Part shown: in pieces, positions 63,386-63,787 of the stretch | How the letters are laid out: each line of letters starts with the position of its first letter | How positions within the stretch are numbered: the stretch's first letter is position 1 | IMG/VR virus record: IMGVR_UViG_3300027304_000003 | DNA: 64,000 nucleotides | Origin: a virus | Lineage: Duplodnaviria; Heunggongvirae; Uroviricota; Caudoviricetes | Direction: 5' to 3' (one strand) | Made by a program: the position numbers and the translations under genes | The notes under the pieces: generated by a model | What the model was told of the DNA's origin: nothing | Seen by the model: the letters and a program-made list of their open reading frames with translations, nothing else | The model's database searches: none

Positions 63386-63787
63386 ATGCGTATATATCCA
63401 TCAACAAAAGTCTATATGGCTCCAAGCAGTATACATGGCTGGGGAGTATTTGCAGACAAGATAATATTTGAAGGGGACATTATAGAAGAGTGTCCCTTTT
63501 TTGATATAGGTATGCAAAATGGAGAAATATCTCCTTGTGTAATAGACTACAGATTTAATTGGCCACAAGATTCTGGTAGACAATGGGAGAAACAAGTGGT
63601 AGCTGGTGGGTTTGGTTCATTTTATAATCATTCAGACACAGCCAACGCTGCTTGGAGATCCAACATAGAACGCAACACGTTTGAGTTTGTTGCTACAAGA
63701 CTCATCCAACCTGACGAAGAACTCTTTGTATGGTATGGTGACATAACATATTGGAATGATGGTAGGAATCATATTGAAGTAAAATAA
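63386..63787 (+). CDS. 133-aa minimal SET-domain protein; putative protein lysine methyltransferase.
   Basis: GWGVFA...GDIIEE...FYNHSDTANA...EELFVWYGD matches the SET signatures GxG, NHS and ELxxDYG. Confidence 0.6.
   Translation: MRIYPSTKVYMAPSSIHGWGVFADKIIFEGDIIEECPFFDIGMQNGEISPCVIDYRFNWPQDSGRQWEKQVVAGGFGSFYNHSDTANAAWRSNIERNTFEFVATRLIQPDEELFVWYGDITYWNDGRNHIEVK

Follow-up and report, generated by a model that had tools for sequence, protein, structure and literature searches.

vSET, the SET-domain protein of chlorovirus PBCV-1 (A612L; PDB codes: 1n3j and 3kma), acts as a dimer. It methylates H3K27 of the host and shuts down host transcription (PMC3089700). In Chlamydia pneumoniae, cpnSET methylates Hc1 and Hc2, and in Methanosarcina mazei, Go1-SET methylates MC1-alpha (PMC3980110). 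A SET-domain ORF (ORF62) is also listed in Stenotrophomonas phage vB_SmaM_Ps15 (PMC9025141). Our literature searches turned up no functional or biochemical characterisation of any phage SET protein, only this bare listing and an unrelated mention of a 'C2-set domain' in the crassvirus atlas. Several entries in BFVD are named 'SET domain containing protein [uncultured Caudovirales phage]', and JGI labels many homologues alike. The identification of a SET domain in a phage protein is in itself unsurprising, given that the label 'SET domain-containing' is already in use for such proteins at JGI and UniProt. To rewire their hosts, phages ADP-ribosylate, phosphorylate, and acetylate host proteins; the literature searches gave no account of a phage-encoded SET enzyme that methylates lysine. 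New in this study are the cassette behaviour of a phage SET gene, a phage-restricted clade that spans several lineages, and an argument against the HU-like protein of the phage as an obligatory substrate.

The window, i.e. the whole stretch of 64,000 nucleotides analysed here (IMG/VR virus record IMGVR_UViG_3300027304_000003), carries the SET-domain gene at positions 63386-63787 on the plus strand. The 133-aa ORF is present exactly as described in the initial annotation, running from ATG to TAA (the coordinates include the stop codon), and its product is predicted to be a minimal protein-lysine methyltransferase. The Pfam SET profile (PF00856) matches with E=9.3e-14 (52.2 bits, gathering cut-off 22.4), and profile positions 1-105 of 105 align to aa 18-118 of the protein. 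The agreement with SET proteins goes well past what chance would produce. In PDB, the best sequence match is PBCV-1 vSET (1n3j, E=2e-7), which at 119 aa is indeed of similar size, as had been suggested; further matches are Plasmodium PFL0690c (4rz0) and Schizosaccharomyces pombe Set7 (5h6z). At least 99 homologues have a similar length. PHROGs, NCBIfam, and PADLOC contain no match for the protein. When compared with copies that are 90-91% identical, the gene shows a dN/dS of about 0.19-0.22, and a value of about 0.2 indicates purifying selection.

The protein contains only two cysteines (C36 and C51), which form no cluster, and it ends 14 residues past the YGD motif. The Cys-rich, Zn-binding pre-SET and post-SET regions of canonical SUV39/SET1/SET2-type enzymes are absent; therefore, the protein is placed in the minimal class and not in those families. 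It has the features of the vSET-like minimal class, being virus-encoded, composed of the SET core only, and 133 aa long within a range of about 120-135 aa. Judging from sequence and model, the ORF encodes a stripped-down, vSET-like SET-domain protein and a predicted lysine methyltransferase. The family is acidic, with pI values of 4.55-5.79 (median 4.78; 4.7 for the protein of the window).

All three signatures that had been read from the sequence, GWGVFA, NHS, and EELFVWYGD, are found, at aa 18-23, 81-83, and 111-119, respectively. GWGVFA (63437-63454, plus strand, as for all motifs here) is the SAM-binding GxG motif and aligns with GGYGVFA of vSET. NHS (63626-63634) belongs to YNHS (aa 80-83; 63623-63634), the SAM pocket and pseudoknot motif, which aligns with FNHS of vSET. 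EELFVWYGD (63716-63742) aligns residue by residue with EEITISYGD of vSET and includes the putative catalytic Y117 (63734-63736). A conserved C-terminal tail, YWNDGR (aa 122-127; 63749-63766), follows, in which Y122 and W123 align with the Y-W of vSET. In an alignment of 34 homologues, reaching down to 48% identity, H17, G18, G20, V21, F22, F57, Y80, N81, H82, N87, E112, Y117, G118, Y122, and R127 are invariant, S83 is nearly invariant, and conservation is 90% or more for W123, D125, and G126. The motifs for SAM binding and catalysis are kept, and the catalytic core is intact; with an intact core, SAM-dependent methylation of protein lysine would be expected.

W90 (63653-63655) is another invariant residue, eight residues past the histidine of NHS, and S. 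pombe Set7 has the same register. By SETD7 numbering (H297, Y305), W90 may fall at the Phe/Tyr-switch position, which sets mono-, di-, or tri-methylation; no weight is given to this correspondence here. A bulky tryptophan at the switch might limit how many methyl groups are transferred.

The AlphaFold2 model, built with the 34 homologues, has a mean pLDDT of 85.7 and a pTM of 0.78. In a Foldseek search against PDB, the top match is vSET (3kma_A, E=1e-8, TM 0.85 normalised to vSET), followed by PFL0690c and S. pombe Set7, and then by MLL1/3/4, SETD8, EZH2, G9a, and SUV420H. In all, 353 PDB chains were matched at E<=1e-3, and all 50 matches listed are SET-domain structures. The best structural match in BFVD is A0A6J5L8Y2 (E=3e-12, 34% identity, 128 aa). 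The initial annotation had proposed a minimal, lysine methyltransferase-like SET protein whose fold could be checked by profile and structure prediction; both agree with it, through the full-length PF00856 match and vSET at the top of the Foldseek ranking. The C-terminus is poorly modelled, with a mean pLDDT of 58 for aa 121-130 and values below 50 for aa 130-133. C-flanking segments of SET enzymes often stay disordered until a cofactor or substrate binds or the protein dimerises. By analogy, the YWNDGR tail would become ordered upon binding or dimerisation, and it may be a post-SET-like lid or a part of the dimer interface.

The window belongs to a tailed phage of roughly 100-117 kb; related contigs reach 101-118 kb. 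The structural and packaging genes lie on the minus strand and include the large terminase (TerL, 50641-52680), the portal (48056-50641), the major head protein (44543-46096), collagen-like tail fibres, among them a protein of 728 aa (37093-39279), which matches 27 PHROG tail-fibre families via repeated segments, and large virion proteins, among them a virion structural protein (25928-31018; phrog_37948). Downstream of the structural block on the same strand is a giant ORF of 4,306 aa (4461-17381); neither this ORF nor the large ORFs of 902 and 1,033 aa near it have a PHROG match. By analogy with crAss-like phages, the giant ORF may encode a virion-packaged or ejected protein.

The nearest TerL sequences are those of Leptolyngbya phage Lbo-JY46 (39% identity), Cellulophaga phages phi17:2 and phi4:1 (31%), and crAss-like phages (25-28%); the phage is a distant relative of the crAss-like and Cellulophaga phages. 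Most phage records matching TerL infect Bacteroidota, and cyanobacteria are also among the hosts. The type of phage points to a bacterial host. When the 3-kb SET region was compared by megablast with 50,697 phage records, no match and hence no close cultured relative was found.

The structural block is headed by a gene for an HU/IHF-like protein (53783-54184, minus strand). The IHF-like protein noted at this position is real, with a Bac_DNA_binding match of E=1.4e-6 (28.9 bits, cut-off 22.4). Only its N-terminal half (aa 9-63) fits the profile (positions 3-57 of 90), the matches to the IHF alpha and beta families of NCBIfam are weak, and with a pI of 7.9 the protein is only mildly basic. Between about 54860 and 55530, the structural (minus) and replication (plus) blocks diverge, and the GC and AT skews flip around 56 kb; the region may be regulatory or an origin. 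Small ORFs and the DNA polymerase occupy the plus strand beyond about 55.5 kb.

The SET gene is the last in a tight array of four genes on the plus strand. It is preceded by the DNA polymerase of 650 aa (60990-62942; phrog_1252, E=9.9e-141), an ORF of 62 aa (62942-63130), and an ORF of 84 aa (63130-63384). The first three overlap at their stop codons, and the ATG of the SET gene lies one base past the TAA of the 84-aa ORF. The 84-aa ORF is found in all 58 slot-resolved loci (cluster S0) and has no family match; the 62-aa ORF is found in 20 of the 58 (cluster S1) and matches nothing in Pfam, PHROG, or PADLOC. Downstream of the SET gene, a further gene starts at 63800 on the plus strand and is cut by the end of the window at 64000. 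It is homologous to positions 1714-2265 of a related contig (L007), encodes about 183 aa in relatives, and has no Pfam match. In a 90%-identical relative, the region downstream of the SET gene includes a metallophosphatase, a DnaB-like helicase, and another helicase. A terminator scan found no terminator-like hairpin between the polymerase and the SET gene, and a promoter scan gave 43 sites versus 52 +/- 7 expected. The gene would probably be co-transcribed with the replication genes, with the timing of its expression suggested by gene order.

Relatives of the polymerase were found on 294 IMG/VR contigs, and the best 80 loci, with polymerases of 72-100% identity, were compared. A locus was called SET-less when it reached more than 1.5 kb past the polymerase. 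Among these best 80 of the 294, the SET gene is present at one locus and absent from 71, and the remaining eight are too short; the sole carrier (L009) is identical to the window. The gene is absent from five loci (L146, L147, L150, L151, and L180) despite a polymerase that is 96% identical, and only seven IMG/VR contigs (L008-L014) have a SET copy of at least 91% identity in the context of the window. Missing from so many close relatives, the SET gene is accessory and hence dispensable.

The boundaries of the insertion can be placed to the base. At the left junction (63382-63385, plus strand), which consists of the TAA of the 84-aa gene and one base, the window is colinear with three SET-less loci (L146, L150, and L180) through ...AAAGATTAA and then diverges. 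Colinearity returns at the right junction (63788-63799, plus strand), in the spacer AAAAACACAATT ahead of the next ATG. In the SET-less relatives, AAAACACAATT and the ATG of the next conserved gene come straight after the TAA of the 84-aa gene. Compared with these relatives, the window has one base and the 402-nt SET ORF inserted exactly after the TAA of the 84-aa gene.

The slot between the polymerase, its upstream anchor, and the next conserved gene (62942-63799 in the window) is hypervariable. In relatives, it contains an HNH/NUMOD4 endonuclease (L149), GIY-YIG endonucleases (L217 and L222), a 2OG-Fe(II) oxygenase (L175), a Cys-rich ORF of 76 aa, and several other small ORFs. The 2OG-Fe(II) oxygenase is another potential modifier of proteins or nucleic acids. 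The SET gene is therefore an optional single-gene cassette and not a core replication gene. The suggestion of a phage early/replication operon was right in that the genome is that of a phage and the gene lies beside replication genes; its place there is that of an optional cassette instead of a fixed member, and the term 'early' reflects position only.

Relatives of the SET protein were found on 319 IMG/VR contigs, the best 80 of which are all at least 52% identical. By clustering of neighbouring ORFs and by Pfam contexts, members of the same clade (>50% identity) turn up in at least four phage backgrounds that are unrelated to one another. These are the lineage of the window itself (nine loci including the window), a large lineage of myoviruses, which accounts for about 53 loci and has contigs of up to 274 kb, a lineage marked by a CbbQ/MoxR-like ATPase (L023 and L030), and a 735-kb uncultured phage (LR756501), in which the SET gene adjoins PhoH. 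In the myovirus lineage, the gene is located between a sheath-like structural block and genes for an SNF2-family helicase, an Fe-SOD-domain protein, T4 gp13, and PolB, and in a sub-variant it is found amid sugar-modification genes. No neighbouring gene is shared between the backgrounds, within up to 10 kb on each side for most loci.

A tblastn search of the SET protein against the 50,697 phage records found only two copies of the 735-kb uncultured phage, and thus no cultured phage with this clade among these records. Among 185,579 prokaryotic species, represented by one genome each, the best cellular match is 42% identical and the others do not exceed 38%, most lying at 28-38%. The best match (L088) is on a 31.6-kb contig of 28% GC in a metagenome-assembled genome of Fluviicola sp. 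(JAJTEO010000009.1), and the two flanking ORFs scanned have no Pfam match. It is possible that this contig derives from a phage or prophage and was binned with the Fluviicola genome, which would hint at a Bacteroidota host. An origin as a host-derived metabolic gene was considered as the primary reading and rejected, since identity to cellular relatives does not go beyond 42%. Among 1.84 billion representatives, a profile search gave 6,051 clusters (at 50% identity) with E<=1e-3 and 44 with E<=1e-30; therefore, minimal SET proteins are plentiful in prokaryotic and viral metagenomes, and this clade is narrow. Overall, the SET clade is phage-specific and has spread horizontally between unrelated phages. 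All SET-bearing phage loci have a similarly low GC content (30-36%); therefore, the spread may reflect one host gene pool and not a universally useful target.

Two arrangements are observed in parts of the wider family. In the myovirus lineage, the SET gene of L002, L005, and about 38 other loci is immediately upstream of an SNF2/DEAD-family helicase, which is followed by a 513-aa protein with the N- and C-terminal domains of Fe-superoxide dismutase, and then by T4 gp13-like and PolB genes. The SET-SNF2 adjacency recalls chromatin machinery; it is limited to one myovirus lineage and for this reason is not counted as independent evidence. Tandem pairs of diverged minimal SET proteins, 30-52% identical within a pair, are found in the same myovirus lineage (L044 at 5072-5862, L065, L066, and L074) and in Bacteroidota genomes of Chitinophagaceae, Gelidibacter, and Ferruginibacter (L117 and L121-L124), and the profile search also contains fused double-SET proteins of about 260-300 aa. 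The tandem and fused forms suggest hetero- or homodimeric working units.

A possible function of the protein can be described as follows. With a SET core alone, and with neither a pre-SET nor a Cys-rich post-SET region, the protein would catalyse SAM-dependent N-methylation of protein lysine. It would probably work as a dimer by analogy with vSET, and the tandem diverged pairs and fused double-SET proteins would fit a dimeric working unit. The target during infection would be a conserved basic protein of the host, for example a nucleoid-associated/histone-like or a ribosomal/translation protein, and its methylation would help the phage in an accessory way that is not essential, e.g. through host takeover or counter-defence. 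The acidic pI of the family fits a basic substrate, although this argument is weak. On balance, it is probable that the protein is an active, SAM-dependent lysine methyltransferase, likely dimeric, which is encoded by an optional cassette and acts on a basic, conserved host protein. The fuller scheme, in which a phage-restricted SET clade moves as a one-gene cassette and methylates a conserved nucleoid-associated/histone-like or translation protein of the host during infection, is put forward as a tentative one.

Alternatively, the enzyme might methylate a protein of the phage itself, namely the HU/IHF-like protein or a virion or replisome component, and tune packaging, replication, or late transcription. 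The window does encode an HU/IHF-like protein, the SET gene is found among replication genes and, in the myovirus lineage, beside an SNF2-family helicase, and cpnSET and Go1-SET methylate nucleoid proteins of their own organism, Hc1 and MC1-alpha (PMC3980110). However, relatives that lack the SET gene retain the HU/IHF-like gene at 95-98% identity, on the contigs that also carry L146, L147, L149, and L180, so that it works without the SET gene and an obligatory role as substrate is unlikely. The SET-less state of 71 of the best 80 polymerase loci, the lack of a gene that consistently adjoins the SET gene across the four backgrounds, and the only mildly basic character of the HU-like protein also speak against a phage substrate, which we regard as unlikely. 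Since the SET gene is dispensable and moves between unrelated phages without a partner gene, and since the HU/IHF-like gene is kept in SET-less relatives, a host target is favoured over the HU/IHF-like protein of the phage, and a conserved host protein is the more likely of the two. The absence of a conserved neighbour is by itself a weak argument for a host substrate.

An accessory cassette that is patchy among near-identical phages and exchanged between unrelated ones would also be compatible with counter-defence, in which the enzyme methylates a host immunity protein, or methylates phage proteins that are targeted by a lysine-directed host system (e.g. ubiquitin-like conjugation). Such a patchy pattern in a hypervariable slot is typical of anti-defence and host-takeover genes. 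However, PADLOC has no match for the SET protein or for the two ORFs upstream of it, the other cassettes of the slot include no recognisable anti-defence gene, and no SET-based anti-defence protein was found in the literature searches; counter-defence in this sense is thus held to be distinctly improbable. The dispensability of the gene could also indicate that it is a decaying passenger, or that its product is inactive and only binds a partner as a decoy or adaptor. SAM-binding and catalytic residues that are invariant down to 48% identity, a dN/dS of about 0.2, and the retention of the clade by several lineages, on hundreds of viral contigs, all argue against an inactive or decaying gene, and we give this explanation very little credence. 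An intact SET core, purifying selection, and exchange between unrelated phages together imply that the gene probably confers a selectable benefit.

If the methylation of a host protein as proposed above is true, it would to our knowledge be the first case in which a bacteriophage employs protein-lysine methylation to take over its host or to counter host defence. The phage SET protein is a tractable candidate for host manipulation and, as far as the literature searches show, an unexplored one. At 133 aa, it is easy to synthesise and suited to substrate discovery by methyl-lysine proteomics, and the presence or absence of the gene among near-identical phages provides natural isogenic comparisons. 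Minimal SET proteins of phages also bear on the origin of viral and eukaryotic SET domains.

Among described proteins, A0A6J5L8Y2 from an uncultured Caudovirales phage and ORF62 of Ps15 are phage-encoded minimal SET proteins like the one in the window, but their annotation is automatic or descriptive and assigns them no function. The tblastn search with the SET protein of the window did not recover the Ps15 protein at E<=1e-3, as the two are too distant. S. pombe Set7 (PDB code: 5h6z) and PFL0690c (PDB code: 4rz0) are likewise small single-domain SET proteins, ranking second and third after vSET, and Set7 has the N-H-x6-x-W register of the phage protein; however, both are eukaryotic nuclear enzymes that act on histones, and they are 27-32% identical to the phage protein. 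cpnSET and Go1-SET are small SET proteins from prokaryotic settings whose substrates are basic DNA-associated proteins (PMC3980110), and they offer the best functional analogy for a target of the phage protein in the bacterial cell. They differ in that they are cellular genes, and such relatives of the phage clade as cellular genomes contain are all distant.

The closest counterpart overall is vSET, which is the best PDB match of the phage protein both by sequence and by predicted structure. Each of the two is encoded by a virus and comprises nothing beyond the SET core (119 and 133 aa), and the GxG, NHS, E-E-x-x-x-x-Y-G-D, and C-terminal Y-W elements of vSET align with those of the phage protein. 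However, the identity between the two is only about 25-30%, and the pI of the phage protein is 4.7 in contrast to about 8 for the aligned portion of vSET. vSET comes from a eukaryotic giant virus and has histone H3K27 as its substrate, whereas the phage gene is an optional cassette; since a bacterial host has no histone H3, the substrate of the phage protein would have to differ from that of vSET. If the phage enzyme does methylate a host protein, it would be the counterpart of chlorovirus vSET in the viruses of bacteria.
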